From the IMG/VR virus record IMGVR_UViG_3300045988_100686, positions 83,680-147,679 of that record: a stretch of 64,000 bases of DNA, one strand, 5' to 3'. Position numbers and translations under genes: made by a program. Source of the DNA: a virus. Below the pieces are notes generated by a model. That model was not told where the DNA came from and searched no databases. It saw nothing but the letters and a program-made list of their open reading frames with translations. Position 1 is the stretch's first letter, and each line of letters begins with the position of its first letter. Of this stretch, positions 1,099-56,557 are shown piece after piece.

Positions 1099-1611
1099 TC
1101 ATCCTTTTGGCATCTGTTTTACTGCGTCAGCAATTGTTTTATATAGAAGAGCTCCAGTTGCTACATTACCTGCAGTAGCTAGCGCTCCAGCGGCACGGGT
1201 CTCATTCTTTGTAATCCCAAGATCCCTAAAGTTTAATGTACCAGACCCATTCTGGATTCTTTGCTTGATTGTCTTGTAAGTGATTAAGAATGATGGTGCT
1301 GAAGCAATAAGTGATGCTACTTGTAGTAAATGTGGTTTTTGACGTGCACTAATAAGTTGTCCAATGTCAATCGTTGTTCTAATTGCACCTTTGATAGCCA
1401 AAGCAGCGACAAGAACAAAGATTTTACGAATAACAAGCTCTTTTTTGCTCAGCTGAAATCCATCTGTTATCTCTTCTTTTGACATTACTGTATGATCTGG
1501 GATTAAGTAAATAGCTGCTACACAGACTACTAGGGGAATACCCTTGCTTATTAAAAACCGTTTTACTTGTTCTCCAATTATATTTGCGAGCATTTGTTCG
1601 TCTCTGCCCAT
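1099..1611 (-). CDS. hypothetical membrane protein (170 aa)
   Basis: ORF track. The start ATG overlaps the TAA of the upstream RNAP gene (TAATG). Hydrophobic segments are present. Confidence 0.5.
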   Translation of the reverse strand: MGRDEQMLANIIGEQVKRFLISKGIPLVVCVAAIYLIPDHTVMSKEEITDGFQLSKKELVIRKIFVLVAALAIKGAIRTTIDIGQLISARQKPHLLQVASLIASAPSFLITYKTIKQRIQNGSGTLNFRDLGITKNETRAAGALATAGNVATGALLYKTIADAVKQMPKG

Positions 1612-4313
1612 TAGTACCTCCCGTCTTTACCTTTTCCGAATCCTGTTCCGCGTGCGTAGGAAGGAATAGGATTATAAGAGTGTAATGGACTACGTGATTG
1701 TGTAGCAGCGTTATCAATAAGCTTCTCTTTTAAGTATTTAAATCCAAAGTTAGCCATCCAATCATGTTTGTAGGTTGGGGCTTTATTGGTACCCTTCTGG
1801 AAGGGAACAAACTTTGGTGGACGCTTGCTAGGATTCTTGCGAATATCTGCTGCTAGCTGGTTATAGTCTACTACGTCTCCTTCAATGAGATCATCAAAAT
1901 CTCCCGGATCAATAATCTGTACGTAGTTTATTAATCCACGAGCGATTACCTCAAAGTTTTTCTTTACACTATCGAGTCCTGCACCATGGTACAGAGTATC
2001 AAGACTCTGAATAAACTGCTTGCGACCAGTATCTATGCCTTTGTAAGGTACAACCTTGCTAATGTTTAGAATACCGTCTGTTAATGGGTCGCCAGCTTCT
2101 ACTCTATCCCCAACCTTTACTTTCAGTGTTCTTGTTGGCGGTATGTAGTACTTCTTACGGCCTATGTATACGTTCTGTCCGCCTGCAGGTGCTGCCTGTA
2201 TGTTTGTGATTGTTCCAGATACTTCAGTAATAACTGCTGCACCACTAAACTTAGTGGACATATTAAAGAACGCCTTTACCGTGTTAAAACCAATTGCCTC
2301 ACCTGCTGCAGTACCTGCTGTATGTTTAGATGACAGGCCTAACTGTGTAAAAGGTTCTGAAATAGCGTGAGCAGATACTACACCTACATTTTCACCGATA
2401 TCAGGGAATTTCAATTTCTCGTTGTACCCGTAGCAATATTGGCATACACCATCATGTGCTTCACATGTAGCTGGGCTACGTACCTCAACCTGAGGAACTC
2501 CACGACGTTTTAATTGTTCATAATAGTTGGCATCGATAAACTTGTTTGTCTTCGCCTCAACACGGTTAATGATATTCTTAGTATCGTTAATGTCACGTAC
2601 TAAACCACGTTTACATCCGCAATCCTTTTTGGTAACTACGATATCAAGTACGTTGCCAATAAGTTCTTTTGCTAATGCGCCTGCAGGAGCTACGGATAGC
2701 TTTGCACCAACAGTACCTTTACGGGTGCCATAGGATGATACAAAGTAATCGGCAGGACTTAGACCCTCGTTGTATGATGTGTGAATCAAGGAAGGAATAA
2801 GTTTATCTTTAGGATCTGCTACTACTGTAGGACTAGTTATGATCTGCATTACTTGTCCTTTTGACCCCTTGGAGCCTGTATATGCCCACTGCTGGAATGT
2901 GTTGTCAGTTGCCTCATCTGTGAGTTTCTGTGCAAATGCCTGAGCTTTACGTAATATCTTGCCTTTTTCTGCATCGACTTGTTTGGGTGTAAGATCTTTG
3001 CGTTTGTCAATATCTGCCAGCTCTTGGTCAATCTTATTGAAGTATATGTTACGCTTTTTCTTCAACTCATCCATATCGAAGTCAGTTGCTTTGTAAGATA
3101 CACCTAATCTATAGGCAAATAATGCTCCCAACTCTTTTAGACCATCAGCAATCCTGGTATATTCTTTTGGCCATCTCTGTCCTACCTGGGTAAGAAGGCC
3201 GCTCATTACGGATTTATTCCACACTTTGTCATAATTACGCAATGGCATTGGGAATAGCTCATTGATAAGTACTGCACCTGCAGTTGTCTTAAACTGTCTG
3301 TATTGAACAGGGGCGTCTGGCTTAATCATTCCCATGCGGATATTTTCGTGAAGCTGTTTAACGTTTTGTACAGGAGTGAATCGTGTACTTTTATCAAACG
3401 TTGGGAGAGTCTTTGTTGCTGCAAATAATCCAAACACTGATTCCTGCTGTGGTAACATCATAGGTCCCATGTTGCGGGGTGAGAATAAGTTGTGACTTGG
3501 AGTCATTTTCTCCAGTGCTTCTAACCTTGCTTCTTCCGTTGCAGGTACATGAAGCTGCATGGTATCATAAACTAGAATACCGTTGGCTATGAAAAGTGGA
3601 AACTCCGGGACCGTGAAGTCGTAAGTTATTTCTTCTCGGTCAACTTCTTCTACAGAAGTCACCTCATCCCATACATATGGCAGGTTTAAATATGGATTTG
3701 CTGGGTTTACCTTAGCTACATCACTGATCTGTACTAGTGCGCCATTCTCTGGTATTCTTACTGCGTTGTAGTCCAAGTATAAACGTGTGTTTACTATTTT
3801 GCAAAAGATACCCTGACGTGCTAGTATTACTTTAGCTAATTCTAGCTCTTGCTTATCCTTTACCTTCCAGTACATACTAGGATTTTCTGTGTTATCTGTG
3901 GTATCAAAGTGGACCATTGCTAACAATGCCGTGCCAAGATCATCTGTTGATAAATTTAGCATATAATATGAAAACTTGTTTGGTTTAAAGTTATCCATTG
4001 CAAACTTACGCATAGCTTTTGCTTGTGCAGTTTTCTTTGGAATATATGATATCATACGCATTATAGGCACGAATTTACCAAGTGCATCCTGGGGAGGTAA
4101 TGGAGCAAAAAATGTTTCACTTCCGTTTGTTGCCAATGAGTGGTCATCGGTTACTGTGATCTCGTAGCCACAAGAGGTGCAGATTCTGTACATCTTCCCA
4201 TGCTCTGTGTGTACACTTCGCTCAGTGTAATCCATGAATTCATTGGTGTTTGTAGCAGGGCAATAGGTTAATACTTTTCCCTTAACTACAGTTGAGTTAC
4301 TTTGGGTACTCAT
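1611..4313 (-). CDS. RNA polymerase beta-prime C-terminal portion, preceded by a 250-aa split-intein C-fragment
   Basis: After residue 250 the protein reads TMQLHVPATEEARLEALEKM, which matches beta-prime QMAVHVPLSxEAQxEA directly after NADFDGD. The N-terminal 250 aa carry intein block B (ITVTDDHSLAT) and blocks F/G (ITYDFTVPEFPLFIANGILVYD). GGAGG lies 12 nt upstream of the ATG. Confidence 0.8.
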   Translation of the reverse strand: MSTQSNSTVVKGKVLTYCPATNTNEFMDYTERSVHTEHGKMYRICTSCGYEITVTDDHSLATNGSETFFAPLPPQDALGKFVPIMRMISYIPKKTAQAKAMRKFAMDNFKPNKFSYYMLNLSTDDLGTALLAMVHFDTTDNTENPSMYWKVKDKQELELAKVILARQGIFCKIVNTRLYLDYNAVRIPENGALVQISDVAKVNPANPYLNLPYVWDEVTSVEEVDREEITYDFTVPEFPLFIANGILVYDTMQLHVPATEEARLEALEKMTPSHNLFSPRNMGPMMLPQQESVFGLFAATKTLPTFDKSTRFTPVQNVKQLHENIRMGMIKPDAPVQYRQFKTTAGAVLINELFPMPLRNYDKVWNKSVMSGLLTQVGQRWPKEYTRIADGLKELGALFAYRLGVSYKATDFDMDELKKKRNIYFNKIDQELADIDKRKDLTPKQVDAEKGKILRKAQAFAQKLTDEATDNTFQQWAYTGSKGSKGQVMQIITSPTVVADPKDKLIPSLIHTSYNEGLSPADYFVSSYGTRKGTVGAKLSVAPAGALAKELIGNVLDIVVTKKDCGCKRGLVRDINDTKNIINRVEAKTNKFIDANYYEQLKRRGVPQVEVRSPATCEAHDGVCQYCYGYNEKLKFPDIGENVGVVSAHAISEPFTQLGLSSKHTAGTAAGEAIGFNTVKAFFNMSTKFSGAAVITEVSGTITNIQAAPAGGQNVYIGRKKYYIPPTRTLKVKVGDRVEAGDPLTDGILNISKVVPYKGIDTGRKQFIQSLDTLYHGAGLDSVKKNFEVIARGLINYVQIIDPGDFDDLIEGDVVDYNQLAADIRKNPSKRPPKFVPFQKGTNKAPTYKHDWMANFGFKYLKEKLIDNAATQSRSPLHSYNPIPSYARGTGFGKGKDGRY
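3564..4313 (-). other. split intein C-fragment (blocks B, F, G; about 250 aa)
   Basis: TxxH block B motif at aa 55-58. The C-terminal NGILVYD is followed by a +1 Thr. The extein resumes with exact beta-prime spacing. Confidence 0.65.
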
Positions 4314-28618: not shown

Positions 28619-28840
28619 TTATACCGGGATCTGATTCAATAATTTCAGCAAATAATATACTTTTACTACATTGACTCCCCTTGGTATTGTGAGATTTATG
28701 AACTTTATGTTAAGCCACTCATCAGCCTCATAGAGTATAGTTTCTTTATCTGGAAAAACAGTGTTTATCGTTGTACTGAACGAAACATTGTTATCAATAT
28801 TAAAGGTATAGGGGTTAGATACTATTGTTTTATTAGCCAT
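28619..28840 (-). CDS. small protein (73 aa) with NPYTFNIDNNVSF motif
   Basis: ORF track. The motif recurs in the out-of-frame 5' leader of the next gene. Confidence 0.35.
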   Translation of the reverse strand: MANKTIVSNPYTFNIDNNVSFSTTINTVFPDKETILYEADEWLNIKFINLTIPRGVNVVKVYYLLKLLNQIPV

Positions 28841-28897
28841 AGTTAGTCATTAGCTATGACCTAAGTTTATTCTAAGTTAATCCATATAAATATACAT

Positions 28898-29708
28898 TTA
28901 GATGCCTTCACCATAAGCTATCAAGACAAACCCGCTGGTTCCTTTATAACCTGTAAGATTTCTGCTCCTTCCAGGAACGCCTCCACTTCCAACTACTACT
29001 TTATAAGATTTTCCAGCAGTTACGTTAACATATGTACTATTATATCCTCCCGAATCTCCAACTGTATTAAGACTGCCGCCATAACCGCCTTTCCCATAAT
29101 TTCCATTAGAAGCGGTAAAAGAAAGGGCAAAACCAGTATTATTGTTTTTGCCATTTGGCGTACCTCCCTTTCCTCGTTCATACCAACAATACGGAGTTTC
29201 AGTTTCGCCTTCTATAGTTTTTCCACTCGAGTAGTCTCCCGCCGTTCCACCAGTTGCAGAAACTCCATTAAAAGATGATGGGTCACCATCATCCTCAATA
29301 TAATATCTACTATTGCCACCCCAATCTTCTCCTGGGAAATTACAGCCTGTGCCACCGCCACCACAAACTGCCACACGAACTCTAGTAATTCCTACAGGGG
29401 CAGTCCATGTATAAGTTCCGGGGGTAGTATAAGAATTCTCTGTATACATTAGTGTAGGATCAGCACTAAAAGATGTATTTCCTTGAATACTGAAAGTATA
29501 AGGATTAGTTACGTTAGTGCTCGCATGGAGCTGTAGATTTAAATCCTTGAATTGACTTGATAGAAGAGGAAAGTCTATGTCTGAGTTGTTGAAACAGTTG
29601 TCTAAACCAGTTAACCCAGATGTCTTTCCTCCTCTTTGTAATTTTGTGGAATTCTCCGAGTACCCACCCTGTATGGGGGGGGGCAGCGGCTAGTAATTTT
29701 TTATTCAT
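28898..29708 (-). CDS. glycine-rich fiber-like protein; the N-terminal 87 codons (ATG 29708) are out of frame with the main ORF (ATG 29449) because of a C9 tract
   Basis: ATG 29708 is coupled (ATGAATAA) to the upstream gene stop and has GGAGG 13 nt upstream. With C9 it reads MNKKLLAAAPPHTGW... and stops at 29514. The main-ORF frame is open from 29689 and encodes NPYTFSIQGNTSF upstream of Met29449. ATG 29449 has no SD. Confidence 0.5.
29675..29683. repeat. G9/C9 homopolymeric tract (slippage-prone)
   Basis: It is the only G/C run of 9 or more in an AT-rich window. It sits between the start codon and the body of the glycine-rich fiber gene. Confidence 0.9.
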
Positions 29709-30192
29709 GACTTTCAGGTTCCTCCGTGTCTGACATTGTAAGACTAGGATATAACTTGTCATTCTTATCATAAACAGCGACAGTTACAGGAGTTCCTTTT
29801 AATAGCTGAATACAGTCATCTTCAATGACCTGGCCATTAATAACGACCTTATCACCGGTTTCCCTACGAACAAACAGGTCAACAATGTGTTTATCCTGTT
29901 TCATATCGTTCAACTCAGCTTGCAGCTTTTCGATAACCTCTCGTGCTGCAACTAAGTCTTTCTTATACTCCTCAACCTGTTTACGTGCATAATCACGTTC
30001 AGCTTCCAGAAACATAATTTTAGATTTAGGCACACCGCCTAACCATGAAAGTATAGTATGTTTGAGAGACATTACATCATCGTTCCTTTCCAAAAAAAAC
30101 ATATCACAAGCAAATTTAATGAGTAACATGGAAGATACTAAGTATGCAATCCCTGCCAATAATTCCGTTCCAAATCTTATATCAGTAAACAT
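29701..30192 (-). CDS. hypothetical protein (163 aa) with central coiled coil
   Basis: ORF track. Confidence 0.45.
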   Translation of the reverse strand: MFTDIRFGTELLAGIAYLVSSMLLIKFACDMFFLERNDDVMSLKHTILSWLGGVPKSKIMFLEAERDYARKQVEEYKKDLVAAREVIEKLQAELNDMKQDKHIVDLFVRRETGDKVVINGQVIEDDCIQLLKGTPVTVAVYDKNDKLYPSLTMSDTEEPESHE

Positions 30193-30829: not shown

Positions 30830-32008
30830 CTATTTTCTCCCGTCATAACCCAAAGCCGGGATTAACAACGCAAGCACAGTAAATATCCAATTACCGCCGC
30901 TTACAATGAATCCCAATGGCGCAACAGTAACTGATAATATGGTTGAATACAGTAATCGTTGCGGATTATATCTGTTTAAAATGATTAGTATTGTCGGTAG
31001 TGCCACACAAGTACGTATAGTGCCATAAATCAAGAACATATCTGTAATGCCTAAGTTTGTCATAACCATTACGGCAGATGCTACAACAAGCAATGCTATC
31101 ATAGATAATCTGCCAATGCTGATTGACTGTTTCATATCAGCACAAACAATAGATGACAAGGCGCATAGATTACTGTCAAGTGTCGAAACCAAGGCACATA
31201 ATACACATATAGCAAGAATGACTTTCAACGGAAATGACTGAAAAGCCGTCGCAATCGACCATTCTGTACCACCAACACTACAAAAACCAATTAAACCAAA
31301 AATGGCAGGGATGATGCCGAACATCAACGCACTACTGATAAAAGTAGATTTTATTTTTTCGTTGTCTATACTGAAAACTCTCTGCCAGAAAGTCTGGTCA
31401 ACATACGGTGCTGACAACAAACCGATAATAGTAGGTATACCGAATGCCCCTAACAGCTCCATGAAAGGTATGGGTTTTCTGCCCATAATATTCAAAGAAC
31501 CGCCGTCTGCCAGCACTGCCGCAAGCAATATCAGCCCACCAAAAAGCATTAGGAAATACTTGTTGTAATCAGCAAGAATACTGCCCTTGATGCCATCACG
31601 CCAAACCATAGCCAACGCCATAATTGACACAGTGAGTGCTGACAGCCATTTCGGTATATCACCCCACGCCACAAACAGCGTATGCAGTCCCATAAGTTGG
31701 ACGCACGTCGAGCAAATCAGTATAGTACATGATACTGCAAGGTGTAACCTCTGTTGCCCTTTTCCAGCACCTTTGATAGCATCTGTAAGAGTAAATCCAT
31801 CAGTCTTTTGTCTTACCACCGATGCAAAATATGCAAATAGCATAAGCGCAAGGATGTTAGGGATAAGGAACAGCAGGAATCCACCTAAGCCACTGTAATA
31901 TGCTTTCTCACTGCTGACGAATATAGCGGGAGTCCATATCCACGTAGCAGCTATGGATGATGCGTAAAATAATGTTTTAGCGTTTTTCCATAGTAAAAAA
32001 TCTTTCAC
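30830..32008 (-). CDS. polytopic inner-membrane protein (392 aa, about 11-12 TM; transporter/permease-like)
   Basis: It is hydrophobic throughout and has no phage structural signature. Confidence 0.55.
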   Translation of the reverse strand: MKDFLLWKNAKTLFYASSIAATWIWTPAIFVSSEKAYYSGLGGFLLFLIPNILALMLFAYFASVVRQKTDGFTLTDAIKGAGKGQQRLHLAVSCTILICSTCVQLMGLHTLFVAWGDIPKWLSALTVSIMALAMVWRDGIKGSILADYNKYFLMLFGGLILLAAVLADGGSLNIMGRKPIPFMELLGAFGIPTIIGLLSAPYVDQTFWQRVFSIDNEKIKSTFISSALMFGIIPAIFGLIGFCSVGGTEWSIATAFQSFPLKVILAICVLCALVSTLDSNLCALSSIVCADMKQSISIGRLSMIALLVVASAVMVMTNLGITDMFLIYGTIRTCVALPTILIILNRYNPQRLLYSTILSVTVAPLGFIVSGGNWIFTVLALLIPALGYDGRK

Positions 32009-32059: not shown

Positions 32060-33100
32060 TTACAATATTTTTGCTTTAGTTGGAACTTTTTTTACTCCGT
32101 CATGATAGAAGCTTATAGACAGGCTAGGCTCTTTTAGTTTACTGTTCATATAATGATCGTCACCTAAGAACTTGTAAATGTATTCCTTAAAAGGCATTTT
32201 ATAATCTGTCTCTTTAATATAAGCACAGTTTTCTTTATAGTGGCTCATAGACCATTGCTGGAATTTGACTGTATTATAAAAATGATATGTATTTTGTCTA
32301 TCGCCTGTGAAATAGAGACCTACTTGGTGTAATCTCAACAAAACTAACATATACTTAAATATAAAATTTAATGCCCACAAAAATTCTGATAGAGTAGTAT
32401 TCTTCCTATTAGTGCCTAAAAATTCGTAGATAGATTTTTCGCAAAATTTTATAGCAGATTCGGTACCGTTCATTTTGCCTGTAAGGATAGGCTTATATTT
32501 ATTTTCATATTCTGGCTTCTCATAAGGCTTCATGAACAAATCTTTTTCTATGACTTCCTGCATCATAATATTTCTTTGCTCATAGGTAAACCTCATTGTA
32601 ACCATACTACCAGTAAGTTGGTCACCTATTTCTCCTGTGACAAACAGAATATCTTTATCATCTTTTAATGACAATAAGTCAACTAGCCCACGCTCATTAA
32701 ATAGTCTATAATCACAGTTGAACTCCTTGTTTACTATTTTGTCATATAGCATGGGATATTCATTACGAGAATTATTATCCATGAAGACGTAGAAGAAGAT
32801 ACCGGATTTTACTAAAGCACAGAATACTAGAGTAGAGTCAATGCCTCCACTCCATAGCAGACATACTTTTTTGCCTTTGCTTTGTTCAAGCAATTGTTTA
32901 AGTGAATCATTAAATGCATCTTCTAGCGTTACGTCAGCTTTTTCTGGAATAGGTATAATATATGGCGATTTATGGGATTCCTTAAAACGGTCTATTGTTC
33001 TACGTTGTACTCCTGTAAATCTTTCTAAGTTTTCTTCATCTACAGATATACTCTTCATTCTAAATATATGAAGAATAAGATTATCTAAACTTACTCCCAT
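32060..33100 (-). CDS. PP-loop ATP pyrophosphatase superfamily protein (adenine-nucleotide alpha-hydrolase-like), 346 aa
   Basis: KVCLLWSGGIDSTLVFCAL matches the SGGxDS PP-loop (QueC/AsnB/TilS-type). Confidence 0.6.
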   Translation of the reverse strand: MGVSLDNLILHIFRMKSISVDEENLERFTGVQRRTIDRFKESHKSPYIIPIPEKADVTLEDAFNDSLKQLLEQSKGKKVCLLWSGGIDSTLVFCALVKSGIFFYVFMDNNSRNEYPMLYDKIVNKEFNCDYRLFNERGLVDLLSLKDDKDILFVTGEIGDQLTGSMVTMRFTYEQRNIMMQEVIEKDLFMKPYEKPEYENKYKPILTGKMNGTESAIKFCEKSIYEFLGTNRKNTTLSEFLWALNFIFKYMLVLLRLHQVGLYFTGDRQNTYHFYNTVKFQQWSMSHYKENCAYIKETDYKMPFKEYIYKFLGDDHYMNSKLKEPSLSISFYHDGVKKVPTKAKIL

Positions 33101-52266: not shown

Positions 52267-52442
52267 GTAACTGGATAATCAAAGAACTAGAGAAAAAGGC
52301 TTGGGCTGAAGCTGTCTTTCCAGAGATTGACAAATTTTATGCCAAAATGCTAGAGCGTGGCACAAGAAGATTTGTCATGACGGGAGTGCAAGAAGGCGCA
52401 ACTTACGCAAGCAAACAAAACAAGAGAAAGGATGGTAAATAA
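52263..52442 (+). CDS. small basic protein (59 aa) translationally coupled between the 545-aa gene and the RNAP gene
   Basis: ATGA overlaps the upstream stop and TAATG overlaps the RNAP start. MSNWIIKELEKKAWAEAVF... It falls below the 60-aa track cutoff. Confidence 0.4.
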   Translation: MSNWIIKELEKKAWAEAVFPEIDKFYAKMLERGTRRFVMTGVQEGATYASKQNKRKDGK

Positions 52443-55400
52443 TGTATCTTAATACAGCACAAAAATGGCAAGCCATTCTTAAAAAAGTAGAAGAAGGCGT
52501 AAAATCCATCTTCCCAATAGAGGCCAAAACCGGCAAAATTGAATTAATAAAGGTAGAAATACCAAATAATACTAATGCATCTATCTCAGCACAAAAAGAT
52601 AGACTTCTTACTGGAACCACCTTAGGCACACCAGTATATGGAACATTCAGACTTGTAAAAAATGATGGAAAGACTGAGACTAATAGAGTTAAACTTATAG
52701 ACCTGCCGATCCTTACTGATCGTGGTACATTTATTGTACAAGGTAAGGATTACTCAGTATTTAACCAAGTCCGTCTGCGTCCAGGATGTTTTGTACGTAA
52801 GACTAACGATTCCGACGAAGTTTTTGCTCAGTTCAACTTAGCTAAAGGATTAGGATTTAAGCTATACATGGATAACAATGGTGTATTCTATGTACGTTTT
52901 GATAAATCAGCGTTATCAAAGTCCTCCAAGCGTATTCCTTTGTATTCTCTGCTTCATGCACTTGGCACATCTGATGGAGAAATTCAAGGTCGCTGGGGAG
53001 ACACTGTATTTAAAAACAACGTAGCTAAATCCAGCCCAGATGACGTTAAAGCCATAATAGCTCAGTGCGTATATCCAACCAAGCGTACAGGTAATGATAA
53101 CAAGGATCTTCAAGAATACTTTAAAGGAAACATTCTCAACGAAGAAACAACCAGAGTAACACTTGGTCATGCATACCAAACTGTTACACCACAGGCCATC
53201 CTAGATGCTACTGTTAAAATGGTTCGGGTATATAATAACAAAGCAGATGAGGATGACCTAGACTCACTATTATTTAAGGAAGTTTTGGGTGTTGAAGATC
53301 ACTTGATGCTTAGAATTGAAAAGAAGGCTAAGGAAGAAGGTCTCATTTATAAGGTGATGAATAGAATTGATGCTGGGTATCCGCTGAAATCTATTATTCT
53401 ACCAAATTTCTTAACTAAGCTTATTGAAGGATTCTTTACAAAATCATCACTCTCTGCTCCACAAACAGAGATTAACCCAATCGAAATCCTAGAAACTGGT
53501 CACAAGATTACTGCAATGGGTGAAGGCGGCATTGGAAGTGACCGCGCGATTCCTATGTCTGCACGCAACCTCCATCCTTCTCACTTTGGATACCTTGATC
53601 CAGTCCGTACTACAGAATCTGAACGTGTAGGTGTTGACTTACGTACTACACTGCCAACAGTAATAAAGAACCGCAATATCTACTCTGAATTCATTGATAG
53701 ATCAGGCAAAAAAGTCATGTTAAAACCAATGGATCTTGTAGACAAAGTAATAGCATTTCCAGGGCAGGAACAAAAGCAAACTGTACGTGTACTGTTAAAT
53801 GGTCATTTAAAAGAAATGTCAAGAAATAAAGTAGACTATTGGGTTCCAAAATCCTCTAACATGTTTACTGTAACTACCAATTTGGTACCATTTCTTCATA
53901 ATGACCAAGGTAACCGTGTAACAATGGCCGGACGTATGGTTACTCAGGCAGTTCCGCTTGTACATCGTGAGGCTCCTTTGGTACAAATTCGTGACCAATC
54001 TGGTGAGTATAACACCATACAGGAACGATATGGCAAGGAGTACTTTGTTCCTAAGTCCCCAGAAGACGGTACCGTAACTGAAGTTACTAAGGACTACATT
54101 AAGGTTAACAATACTAAAGTAGAAATTTACAATAATTTCCCGCTTAACTTAAAGACATTTTTGACAATGTACCCACTCGTCAAGGTTGGTGACAAGGTTA
54201 AAAAAGGTCAAGTACTAGCTGATTCCAACTTTACTAAGGGTGGAGAGTTGGCCCTTGGAACAAACCTTAACGTAGCATATATTCCGTATAAAGGATACAC
54301 CCACGAGGACTCTATTGTAATCAGTGAATCTACAGCTAAAAAATTGACCAGCCAGCATATGTACACCTGTGAGTTTGAAACAGATGTAGACACACTGGTT
54401 GATAAAGGTGTGTTTATTAAGTGGTTTCCTACAAAAATTACACCTGCAAACATTGCTAAACTAAGTGACGACGGTGTTATTAAAAAAGATAGTAAAGTAA
54501 TCCGCGGAGATGTACTTATTGCAGGTATGCGTTATAAAACACTGACTAGCTCTGACAATATGTTGCGTAGACTTCGTGGAAACTTGGTTAACCCATATAA
54601 AGACGCTTCTGAAAAATGGGAACATGATGCTGAAGGAACTGTTGTAGAAGTAGTCCGCAAAGGAAAACTAATCCGCGTAGTAGTTGTAACAGAAGACTCT
54701 GCTAAGCGTGGTGATAAAATTTCTGGCTTACACGGCAATAAAGGTACTATCGGCCTAATCCTTCCAGATGATGAGATGCCTGTTGATAAAAATGGCAAAC
54801 CTGTTGATGCAATGTTGAACCCTGCATCTGTTCCGTCTCGTGTAAATCCAGGACAAATGTATGAAGCCTTGGAAGGTAAACGTGCACTTGCAGAGGGACA
54901 CAAGGTAGTCATTGATAACTTTGATTCAGCAGATTCTAGCAAGAAAGTATTGAATCAGTTGAAGCAAGAAGGCATAGACGTTGAAGAGACACTATATGAC
55001 CCGAAAACTAAACGTCCTCTAGGAAAAGTGTTTACTGGTACTCCGTATTTCATTAAACTGCACAAACAAACAGAAGGCAACTTCTCTAGTCTATACAGAG
55101 GTGCATACGACGCAAATAACCAGCCTATTAAAGGTGGAGAGGAAGGTTCTAAAGGTGTTGGCCAACTTGATGTTTACGCTTTACTTGGACATAATGCGAG
55201 GAACAACCTGGCAGAAATGGCTACATATAAGTCAGATAAAAACGATGATTTCTGGAACAGCCTTGAAGCTGGCATTGCTCCTGCGCCAGCAAAAGAGCCT
55301 TTTGCGTTCAAGAAGTTCAAATCGTTAGTTACCGCAGCAGGTATTGGCATAAAGTCAGATGACAACGCCATGACATTAGCTCCTCTGAATGACAAAATGA

Positions 55401-56557
55401 TCATGGATATGTCAGCAGGTGCAATACGAAAAGGTGCAATACTAGAAAACCACATGGGTAAAGACAGACCTGAATCCGGCGGTATCTTTGACCCTGTGGT
55501 TACAGGTGGTTTGAAAGGACAACAGTGGTCACATGTAAACCTAGCTGCACCTATCGTCAATCCGCTGTTTGAAGGCGTAGTAAGCACGCTTCTGCACAGG
55601 GATATATCAGGTGAAAATGGCAAAAAAATCCAAAAAGAACTTGCAGCAATAAATGTACCTAAACGTATTGGTGAAGTTAGTGCAGCTCTTAAGGTAGCAA
55701 CAGGAAGTAATCGCAACAAGCTTCTAAAAGAACTCAAGTATCTGACAGCGCTAAGAAAAGCTAACATGAACCCTGCAGACTATGTATTAACTAAATTCCC
55801 GATCATACCTCCGCAATTCCGCCCGATTTACAATTCGCAAACTGGTGGTCTTCCGATGGTAGCAGATGTTAACTACCTTTATAAAGACCTATTGAATGTA
55901 AATGAGAAACTAGAGAATATGAAAGACTACCCAGATTCTGAAAAAGGGGCATTACTCAAGGATCTTCGTCAGTCTGCACAGGCCATAGTTGGACTTATGG
56001 CTCCTGTTAACAAGCAAAATGAAAAACGTGGCGTAACAGGCTTCCTTCCTCAACTAACAGGCTCCAATTATCAAGGCCAGGGAACCAGCAAAGAGTCGTT
56101 CTTCCATAGAAAAATTTTAAAACGTCAACAAACGCTGACCGGTCGTGGCACAATCGGACCTGACCCGACGCTTAATGTTGATAATATCAAGATTCCTTGG
56201 GAAATGGCATGGAAGATTTATCAACCATTTGTTATTGCAGAGTTCCGCAAACGTGGCATCAACATCTTGAAGGCTAGAGAAGAAATCAAAAATCGCACTC
56301 CTGTAGCGAAACAACTTCTTGAGATTCAGATGAGAAAACGTCCAGTATTATTAAACCGTGCTCCGACCCTGCACAAGTATAATATTATGGCGTTTACTCC
56401 ACTTGGAACAGAAGGTAAAACAATTTATGTACCGCCTCTGGTAATCAAAGGTTTCGCAGCGGACTTTGATGGTGACTCCGTTGCTGGAGATACTCAAGTA
56501 CTAGTGCAAGATTTGCATGGAAATATTACCCTTAAACAAATAAAAGATGTAGAATAA
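52442..56557 (+). CDS. fused RNA polymerase beta + beta-prime N-terminal half, ending in a 26-aa split-intein N-fragment
   Basis: Beta motifs: TDRGTFIVQGKDYSVFNQVRLRPGCF, ISGLHGNKGTIGLILPDDEMPVD..LNPASVPSRVNPGQ and GQLDVYALLGHNARNNLAEMATYKSD. Beta-prime motifs: FPIIPPQFRP, LLNRAPTLHKYNIMAF and ADFDGD. Then comes SVAGDTQVLVQDLHGNITLKQIKDVE (intein block A) and stop. Confidence 0.85.
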   Translation: MYLNTAQKWQAILKKVEEGVKSIFPIEAKTGKIELIKVEIPNNTNASISAQKDRLLTGTTLGTPVYGTFRLVKNDGKTETNRVKLIDLPILTDRGTFIVQGKDYSVFNQVRLRPGCFVRKTNDSDEVFAQFNLAKGLGFKLYMDNNGVFYVRFDKSALSKSSKRIPLYSLLHALGTSDGEIQGRWGDTVFKNNVAKSSPDDVKAIIAQCVYPTKRTGNDNKDLQEYFKGNILNEETTRVTLGHAYQTVTPQAILDATVKMVRVYNNKADEDDLDSLLFKEVLGVEDHLMLRIEKKAKEEGLIYKVMNRIDAGYPLKSIILPNFLTKLIEGFFTKSSLSAPQTEINPIEILETGHKITAMGEGGIGSDRAIPMSARNLHPSHFGYLDPVRTTESERVGVDLRTTLPTVIKNRNIYSEFIDRSGKKVMLKPMDLVDKVIAFPGQEQKQTVRVLLNGHLKEMSRNKVDYWVPKSSNMFTVTTNLVPFLHNDQGNRVTMAGRMVTQAVPLVHREAPLVQIRDQSGEYNTIQERYGKEYFVPKSPEDGTVTEVTKDYIKVNNTKVEIYNNFPLNLKTFLTMYPLVKVGDKVKKGQVLADSNFTKGGELALGTNLNVAYIPYKGYTHEDSIVISESTAKKLTSQHMYTCEFETDVDTLVDKGVFIKWFPTKITPANIAKLSDDGVIKKDSKVIRGDVLIAGMRYKTLTSSDNMLRRLRGNLVNPYKDASEKWEHDAEGTVVEVVRKGKLIRVVVVTEDSAKRGDKISGLHGNKGTIGLILPDDEMPVDKNGKPVDAMLNPASVPSRVNPGQMYEALEGKRALAEGHKVVIDNFDSADSSKKVLNQLKQEGIDVEETLYDPKTKRPLGKVFTGTPYFIKLHKQTEGNFSSLYRGAYDANNQPIKGGEEGSKGVGQLDVYALLGHNARNNLAEMATYKSDKNDDFWNSLEAGIAPAPAKEPFAFKKFKSLVTAAGIGIKSDDNAMTLAPLNDKMIMDMSAGAIRKGAILENHMGKDRPESGGIFDPVVTGGLKGQQWSHVNLAAPIVNPLFEGVVSTLLHRDISGENGKKIQKELAAINVPKRIGEVSAALKVATGSNRNKLLKELKYLTALRKANMNPADYVLTKFPIIPPQFRPIYNSQTGGLPMVADVNYLYKDLLNVNEKLENMKDYPDSEKGALLKDLRQSAQAIVGLMAPVNKQNEKRGVTGFLPQLTGSNYQGQGTSKESFFHRKILKRQQTLTGRGTIGPDPTLNVDNIKIPWEMAWKIYQPFVIAEFRKRGINILKAREEIKNRTPVAKQLLEIQMRKRPVLLNRAPTLHKYNIMAFTPLGTEGKTIYVPPLVIKGFAADFDGDSVAGDTQVLVQDLHGNITLKQIKDVE
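56477..56554 (+). other. split intein N-fragment (block A only; Ser1)
   Basis: SVAGDTQVLV fits block A C/S-[LV]-[AS]-x-D-T-x-V directly after NADFDGD. Confidence 0.65.

Follow-up and report, generated by a model that had tools for sequence, protein, structure and literature searches.

A Poly-C Tract near the Start of a Fibre-Like Gene as a Probable Contingency Locus in an Uncultured Phage

Organization of the Putative Fibre-Gene Locus

The stretch of DNA analysed here (the window) is 64 kb long, corresponds to positions 83,680 to 147,679 of the IMG/VR virus record IMGVR_UViG_3300045988_100686, and belongs to an uncultured phage. It contains a gene for a putative glycine-rich fibre in which the start codon and most of the coding sequence are placed in different frames by an uninterrupted run of nine C residues. 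Coordinates are those of the minus strand throughout, unless a strand is given, and the features of the locus are collected in Table 1. The start codon of the gene, ATG 29708-29706, overlaps the TAA stop (29703-29701) of the preceding open reading frame (ORF), the letters being ATGAATAA, an arrangement that had been proposed in an initial annotation made from the sequence and is borne out by the minus-strand reading. The ATG is followed by AAAAAATTACTAGCCGCTG, then by the C9 run, which stands nine codons after the ATG and appears as G9 on the plus strand, and then by ATACAGGGTGGG.

Read from ATG 29708, the sequence is translated as MNKKLLAAAPPHTGW... and ends after 64 codons at a TAA (29516-29514); the figure of 85 codons first given for this product belongs to a listed 85 amino acid (aa) ORF that begins at another in-frame ATG, 29771. 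The long frame is closed just upstream of the tract by a TAG, as had been recognized, and from 29689 it runs on for 263 codons until the stop at 28900-28898. Its first ATG, GTG or TTG is Met 29449, which indeed lacks a Shine-Dalgarno sequence. The GGAGG reported upstream of ATG 29708 is present at 29725-29721 but is poorly spaced: other window genes carry AGGAGG 5–9 nucleotides (nt) before the start, and the 12 nt found here are unusually long.

The products computed for the different tract lengths are 269 aa (C8), 64 aa (C9), 32 aa (C10) and 270 aa (C11). Tracts that bring the ATG into the long frame are referred to below as ON and all others as OFF. As first described, the C9 run is the sole long G/C run of the window: there is no other of 7 or more in the 64 kb, the second-longest being 6, and the chance expectation for G/C runs of at least 9 is about 0.03–0.06 per 64 kb. 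The codons of the tract are the rarest of the genome for their amino acids, with CCC making up 5.9% of Pro codons and GCC 6.8% of Ala codons, and such rare codons in an outlier run point to the repeat, not the peptide, as the object of selection.

Table 1. Features of the poly-C fibre-gene locus.
Feature	Position	Strand	Remarks
Upstream gene	29701..30192	-	TAA overlaps the fibre-gene ATG; 90–93% nt identity to relatives over 30196-29462
GGAGG, poorly spaced Shine-Dalgarno inside the upstream coding sequence	29721..29725	-	12 nt before the ATG
Fibre-gene ATG	29706..29708	-	kept in 12 of 12 related loci (L001–L012)
TAG closing the long frame just upstream of the tract	29690..29692	-	sequence reading
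Poly-C tract (C9), sets the reading frame	29675..29683	-	C8 and C11 ON; C9 (window) and C10 OFF
Conserved N-terminal module in the long frame (PLPPPIQGGYSENSTKLQRGG...LQLHASTNVTNPYTFSIQGNTSFSA)	29462..29689	-	homology to relatives stops at 29462
GGGTGGG, probably a decayed poly-G tract	29663..29669	-	suggested by paralogue positions and L013
Long hairpin, mRNA-sense strand	29562..29635	-	AGAGGAGGAAAG (29635-29624) pairs with CUUUCCUCUUCU (29573-29562)
TAA ending the 64-codon out-of-frame product under C9	29514..29516	-	sequence reading
NPYTFSIQGNTSFSA junction	29462..29506	-	common to all fibre genes of the array; joins module to glycine-rich domain here
Glycine-rich, beta-rich C-terminal domain	28898..29461	-	presumed receptor-binding part; homologues match PF21722 (Gly_rich_2); pLDDT mostly above 90
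Met used as start by public annotation (183 aa, P0001)	29447..29449	-	internal domain residue without Shine-Dalgarno
Truncated paralogue (MANKTIVSNPYTFNI...)	28619..28840	-	about 170 nt shorter than the 149–153-aa gene of relatives

Tract Length Variation among Related Loci

Thirteen related loci, L001 to L013, were fetched. L009 and L010 are identical, so that L001–L011 amount to ten contigs independent of one another; the run has been lost from L012, and L013 serves as a distant outgroup. Sequence on either side of the tract hardly changes across L001–L012, and the run in between is C8 in L002 and L004, C9 in the window, L001 and L009/L010, C10 in L003, L006, L007, L008 and L011, and C11 in L005. 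The loss of the run in L012 (GCCCCACTC) left the gene in the ON frame, which identifies the functional frame. A T2/T3 difference 30 nt downstream of the poly-C shifts which length is ON, and a gene is ON when the C run and the downstream T run add up to 1 modulo 3, with the exception of L004, where the body is read in another frame. The poly-C gene is ON in L002, L005 and L006, and in L012 without a run, and OFF in the window and seven relatives (L001, L003, L004, L007, L008, L009 and L011).

A change of 1 or 2 nt in tract length restores a frame of 200–290 aa in every complete OFF tract (18 of 18: 8 poly-C tracts and 10 in the paralogous genes described below). Two further OFF copies, in L003 and L005, were left out of this count because the sequence ends inside the gene. 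The initial inference of a frame-setting tract is borne out in related phages, with lengths from C8 to C11, both ON and OFF alleles, and OFF copies whose reading frames are intact. The tract is hypervariable even between close relatives. L001, L006 and L007 are 99.1% identical over 6.2–6.6 kb, and outside the swapped C-terminal domain their indels all fall in homopolymers, in the order L001/L006/L007: poly-C 9/10/10, T 3/3/2, poly-G 10/9/11, T 6/7/7 and A 9/8/7. The last two of these are a T6/T7 run at L001 4864 and an intergenic A9/A8/A7 run at L001 5526, which likewise differ among the three contigs.

Homopolymers are error-prone, and since the relatives differ at other homopolymers too, the C9 could be a sequencing or assembly error in an ordinary uninterrupted fibre gene whose true tract is C8. 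Lengths of 8, 9, 10 and 11 recur, however, in independent assemblies whose genes are otherwise intact, and the combination of T3 with C10 yields a coherent ON allele. L009, from ENA, and L010, from Logan, are 100% identical over 3.8 kb and have the same tract lengths; the two may derive from one sample. The OFF-type call of the window allele, a protein of 183 aa, was found in five sources on 3 contigs. An error at this position is very improbable.

Fused Proteins in Metagenomic Relatives

A search with the C8-type fusion returned the annotated 183-aa protein P0001 (100% identity, 68% coverage) together with many proteins whose first ~85 residues are 85–96% identical to those of the query and whose C-terminal domains differ. 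At least 13 protein clusters start with MNKKLL..PP(P)IQGG, many of them as MNKKLLTAAPP(P)IQGG. The C8-equivalent N-terminus, MNKKLLTAAPPIQGGY..., is found in at least 8 clusters and the C11-equivalent, ...PPPIQGGY..., in P0006 and P0008, while P0013 (...PPPYRVGTWRISTKLQRGG) uses the third frame and rejoins the body frame via a second indel. The leader frame is thus real coding sequence, as was first argued, its N-terminal module of ~75 aa being 85–96% identical in dozens of metagenome proteins. The proposed extent of the true gene, 29708..28898, agrees with relatives that encode MNKKLLTAAPPIQGG... (C8-type) and ...PPPIQGG... (C11-type), so that both of the fusions foreseen for C8 and C11 are encoded among relatives.

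About 19 clusters are called from lineage-specific internal TTG or GTG starts (MENST..., MGTWRIS..., MQRGG..., MNNSD...), as is expected when the tract is out of frame. These were considered as alternative in-frame starts and rejected: they differ by lineage, and the window has none before Met 29449. By using internal starts (183 aa against the 269 aa described here), gene callers produce annotations that under-report both the protein and the switch.

Exact-protein look-ups of the window proteins P0001 and P0121 matched no contigs, and the N-terminal module alone, used as a homologue query, gave a single match, an effect of the word index; when searched exhaustively, the module yielded just one small family, specific to the lineage, along with spurious matches to repeat proteins. 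Megablast of the region against INPHARED phages gave no match, IMG/VR scans, whether by protein or by DNA pattern, brought up no relatives, and a scan of GTDB genomes found none either, and hence no prophage or host clue.

A Modular Array of Putative Fibre Genes with Paralogous Tracts

The window is homologous to its relatives from 30196 to 29462; the similarity halts exactly at the NPYTFSIQGNxSFSA junction and resumes at 28893. From the junction to the last array gene, the relatives carry 3–5 extra small genes with the NPYTF motif (~2.7 kb) that the window is without. Some of these extra genes are "short" and have a Shine-Dalgarno and ATG of their own (M..VSNPYTF...), and the others are "long" and have an N-terminal module. 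The similarity first noticed between the leader frame and the neighbouring gene 28619..28840 is real, and lies in the NPYTF motif.

Paralogous long genes share the layout of the window gene, with an ATG, 8–13 codons, and then a tract that is mostly G5–G13 (C8 in L009). Relatives have one or two such additional genes, all lost from the window, in which the tract lies 36–57 nt after an ATG without Shine-Dalgarno (L001 4229; L002 4240 and 5754; L004 4458; L005 4255; L006 4271; L007 4220; L008 4248 and 5482; L009 4133 and 5874; L011 4135; L012 ~7105). Among the paralogous tracts 3 of 12 are in frame, and the reading frames are intact in all ten complete OFF copies.

The C-terminal domains beyond the junction vary widely in the relatives, and include glycine-rich, BspA/DUF285 leucine-rich-repeat and 'YYSKxINNTTPTVxDL' types, among others. 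Each relative locus also contains additional junction copies, which suggests, from sequence comparison, domain shuffling through recombination at NPYTF. By the same comparison the window gene is, to all appearances, a recombinant in which a long module was joined at the junction to the glycine-rich domain, with the deletion of ~2.7 kb. In L011, the glycine-rich domain is a separate short gene (MSTSVSNPYTFNIQSNTSFSANPTLMYTEHS...) with its own Shine-Dalgarno and ATG, 27 codons ahead of the equivalent of Met 29449. Joined to a long module, Met 29449 becomes internal to the domain and expression of the domain becomes dependent on the tract. L011 is also the nearest DNA relative of this domain, and the ratio of nonsynonymous to synonymous substitution (dN/dS) between the two is 0.47, a value that is uninformative on recent constraint because synonymous sites are saturated. 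The neighbouring ORF 28619-28840 is a truncated copy of the 149–153-aa last gene of the array (MANKTTVSNPYTFNI...), having lost ~170 nt, and the conserved C-terminal peptide of that gene, YSNEINAHAVDVEDY, is now in another frame.

A distant glycine-rich homologue, P0080, is encoded at L013 5001-5753, with a G7 tract that encodes RGG 40 nt after the ATG. The L013 tract reads ATACGGGGGGGTACT, similar to ATACAGGGTGGGTACT in the window, and this likeness, along with the poly-G positions of the paralogues, makes the GGGTGGG beside the poly-C look like a decayed poly-G. The L013 gene adjoins an ISL3-family transposase, lies among replication genes of the opposite strand, and looks like an inserted gene.

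The losses seen in the window also lend themselves to another account, in which a deletion between NPYTF junctions made a chimera that is now decaying, the C9 being an inactivating mutation whose reversal would have no effect. The missing ~2.7 kb (3–5 genes), the shortening of the neighbouring gene by ~170 nt, the absence of an ON copy of the window allele from the protein database, where only the 183-aa call is found, and a family-wide ON share not above chance would all fit such a remnant. On the other hand, no stop codon interrupts the 263 codons past the tract, the C run is unbroken and has no counterpart in the 64 kb, OFF copies are intact across the family, and AlphaFold gives a confident predicted model for the C-terminal domain. 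Decay is considered improbable.

Predicted Protein and Phage Context

The gene lies in a minus-strand block of ~30 kb that holds tail and tail-fibre-like genes, and its neighbours match tail-fibre PHROGs and DUF4376. Its own profile match is weak (phrog_863 at 6e-4), and PF21722 (Gly_rich_2) is matched in homologues only. AlphaFold predicts a beta-rich fold for residues ~80–263, with a predicted local distance difference test (pLDDT) score mostly above 90, and a low-confidence coil (pLDDT below 50) for the N-terminal module. Foldseek against the PDB found no significant fold match, the top weak hits being phage tail-tip or receptor-binding proteins, and a sequence search for PDB relatives found none.

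Related contigs are ~147–151 kb in length, with ~40% GC and strong Shine-Dalgarno usage, and the latter suggests a kind of host that differs from that of Campylobacter phages. Two large window proteins, 1611-4313 (-) and 52442-56557 (+), have matches in phage families that resemble the RNA-polymerase beta subunit. Among isolates, the best match for the RNA-polymerase-like protein is in Salmonella phage Arash, at only 35% identity, indicating a lineage that is poorly sampled and has a polymerase of its own.

A Probable Slipped-Strand Switch at the Poly-C Tract

Taken together, the data are best explained if the poly-C run is a contingency locus that is switched by slipped-strand mispairing during replication and is OFF in the window, a reading to which we assign a probability of roughly 70%. 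It builds on what was observed at the locus and in its relatives, namely the anatomy of the gene, the fused protein, the hypervariability of the tract and the intact OFF frames. The run has the signature of a contingency locus because it is an uninterrupted 5' run of rare codons, is hypervariable, occurs in both ON and OFF states with intact OFF frames, recurs in the layout of the paralogues, and was lost from L012 in the ON frame. It is a repeat of at least 7 within a coding sequence, its length toggles between a full and a truncated product, and it is polymorphic between relatives.

Translation would begin at ATG 29708, with initiation probably coupled to termination on the preceding gene, and only lengths of 8 or 11 would bring the ribosome into the 263-codon frame, giving a lineage-specific N-terminal module followed by the glycine-rich beta domain. 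C9 would be OFF as sequenced, its 64-aa product, which is not conserved in relatives, being presumably non-functional. The gain or loss of one C at phage DNA replication would then act as a heritable and reversible ON/OFF switch, and phage populations would be mixed with respect to the fibres that virions carry. The scheme presumes high-rate replication slippage within populations, a role for the protein as a virion fibre and an effect of switching on adsorption or host range.

Several points weigh against this reading. ON alleles make up 3 of the 12 unselected second tracts, and 13 ON clusters compare with ~19 OFF clusters in the protein data, so the ON share lies between a quarter and two fifths, about what chance would give (1 in 3 for random lengths), and there is no sign of selection for ON. 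Every tract is OFF in four genomes, the window among them, and only OFF copies of the exact window allele, all with the 183-aa call, are on record. The array of the window is reduced to one chimeric gene and a truncated neighbour. Homopolymer lengths in metagenome assemblies can carry errors, and it is consensus contigs that were compared. Finally, the fibre or receptor-binding function is suggested by gene context and by weak profile and fold matches.

Hairpins Downstream of the Tracts and Possible Recoding at the RNA Level

A hairpin of ~60–80 nt is found 22–40 nt past every long-module tract, at 39 nt in the window gene and at 22–28 nt in the paralogues. Its two arms, one a Shine-Dalgarno-like purine stretch and the other a stretch of pyrimidines, pair with each other, and it occurs in three paralogous module classes whose sequences differ: N1, which includes the window (arms in Table 1), N2 (purine GGAAAGGAGAAAU, pyrimidine AUUUCUCCUUCC) and N3 (purine GAAAGGAGAAGA, pyrimidine UCUUCUCUUCUUUC). 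The z-scores against shuffled sequences range from -3.3 to -6.1, and are flattered by the trimming of the input to the hairpin before folding. N3 reads the homologous DNA of the hairpin region in another protein frame than N1, which points to the nucleic acid as what is conserved. Three base pairs of the hairpin arms are broken in L012, where the run is lost. In the covariation analysis, the MAFFT alignment of the paralogues put their purine and pyrimidine arms out of register, and the N1 class holds too little variation; no Rfam family was found for either the hairpin or the tract. Internal initiation behind the Shine-Dalgarno-like arm was rejected by eye, as no conserved start in the body frame follows it: N1 has an ATC there that is out of the body frame, N3 an ATC that is in it, and N2 an out-of-frame GTG/ATG that heads a 2-codon ORF.

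With a long run and a nearby structure, the gene might instead be rescued at the RNA level, either by stuttering of the phage or host RNA polymerase or by a +1 slip of tRNA-Pro on CCC-C at a Pro-Pro stall. Some full-length fibre would then be made whatever the length of the tract in the DNA, which would drift neutrally. An ON share of about 1 in 3 is what is expected if the DNA frame is irrelevant, and the frames are intact even where all tracts are OFF. The runs are long (8–13 nt), a conserved hairpin lies past every tract, the phage has multisubunit RNA-polymerase-like proteins of its own, and CCC-C after Pro-Pro is prone to +1 slips, a background familiar from work on EF-P and m1G37. However, the frame relation varies (in-frame, +1 and -1) and L012 does without the run, unlike conserved programmed recoding sites. 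The hairpin, 22–40 nt after the tract, is too distant for a classical frameshift stimulator, and the bacterial transcriptional slippage sites known to us are A/T runs. In L006, moreover, the C10 allele is brought back into frame by T3, where the close relative L007 has T2, suggesting that the frame in the DNA does matter. Recoding of this kind is regarded as unlikely. Two specific forms were also considered. A classical programmed ribosomal frameshift site is excluded as an assignment for the family, since neither length nor frame relation is conserved and no stimulator lies 5–9 nt downstream of the tract. For programmed transcriptional slippage, the out-of-frame arrangement is not conserved, and the near-random ON share is compatible with rescue at the RNA level.

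Each tract is also one arm of an inverted repeat that consists of a C-run, a 5–7-nt loop and a G-run, either arm of which can be expanded: C9-ATACA-GGGTGGG in the window gene (29663-29683) and CCCC-GCATA-G(n) in the paralogues.

A more speculative proposal, which we hold to be doubtful, is that start codon, ~10 free codons, C/G mini-hairpin with either arm expandable, and ~75-nt hairpin form a composite nucleic-acid cassette, kept in three module classes despite their frame differences, that could raise slippage at the DNA or RNA level or tighten the OFF state. If true, this cassette and the domain swapping at the NPYTF junction would constitute a dedicated system for the combinatorial diversification of a phage fibre repertoire.

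Comparison with Known Systems

To our knowledge, phase-variable receptor-binding proteins have been demonstrated experimentally only in Campylobacter phages, and contingency loci in phages generally have been proposed only recently. Two citing papers (PMC12633550, PMC10579305) summarise the hypermutable polyG tracts of 7–11 G that were reported in receptor-binding-protein genes of Campylobacter Fletchervirus phages (Sorensen et al. 2021, Cell Rep 35:109214). As summarised there, they resemble the tracts of the present phages in being G/C homopolymers of similar length (7–11 there, 5–13 here) within receptor-binding or fibre coding sequence, in occurring several times per genome (here, in the relatives), and in toggling the frame ON and OFF by their length. 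The lineage of the window phage is unrelated, with genomes of ~147–151 kb and ~40% GC, strong Shine-Dalgarno usage and its own RNA-polymerase-like genes, for one of which the nearest isolate has 35% identity. Its tracts, furthermore, always lie 8–13 codons from the start of small (~200–300 aa) modular fibre genes, consist of C or G on the coding strand, and are followed in long modules by a conserved long hairpin, and the locus is known from sequence alone. The mechanism proposed here is that of Fletchervirus, and the modular array and the companion hairpin are what is distinct.

Simple-sequence repeats with frequent, reversible frameshifts by polymerase slippage have been described in T2/T4 and other phages and read as bet-hedging (Gomez, Barrick and Waters, bioRxiv 2025, PMC12633550). 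Most of these are A/T runs of 6–9 in genes such as agt and rIIA, and the tail-fibre genes of BASEL coliphages have fewer such repeats than expected (0.77 times expectation; PMC12633550). The present runs differ in being G/C and concentrated in fibre genes. Bacterial poly-G/C contingency genes, as in Campylobacter, Neisseria, Haemophilus and Bordetella, likewise have a 5' tract, common OFF alleles with an intact frame, and lengths that vary between near-identical strains, but they are cell-surface or modification genes, and the element described here is viral and gates a putative virion component. Programmed frameshift and slippage sites (dnaX, prfB, insertion sequence elements, phage tail chaperone G/GT) share with it a slippery homopolymer, a nearby RNA structure and two products from one start; in dnaX/prfB-type sites, however, length and frame relation are fixed and the stimulator lies at 5–9 nt, whereas here both vary and the hairpin is 22–40 nt away.

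The slipped-strand reading would extend the contingency principle to an unrelated clade of uncultured ~150-kb phages, in which the switch heads a whole array of small modular fibre genes. If it proves true at the level of reads, the array would offer a tractable natural case of combinatorial bet-hedging in virion composition.

Neighbouring Genes

The gene immediately upstream, 29701-30192, is called as 163 aa in the window and as 123 aa in the relatives, which use an internal MSLKH start; the extra 5' part, with a T8 run at 30092-30099, is probably non-coding. Two genes further upstream lie inside the tail-fibre block: 30830-32008 (-), which encodes a 392-aa predicted membrane protein (phrog_20720, E 6e-46), and 32060-33100 (-), which encodes a 346-aa protein with a weak QueC-like match. 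In their place, the relatives have genes for a 234-aa DUF4376 protein and a 279-aa protein.

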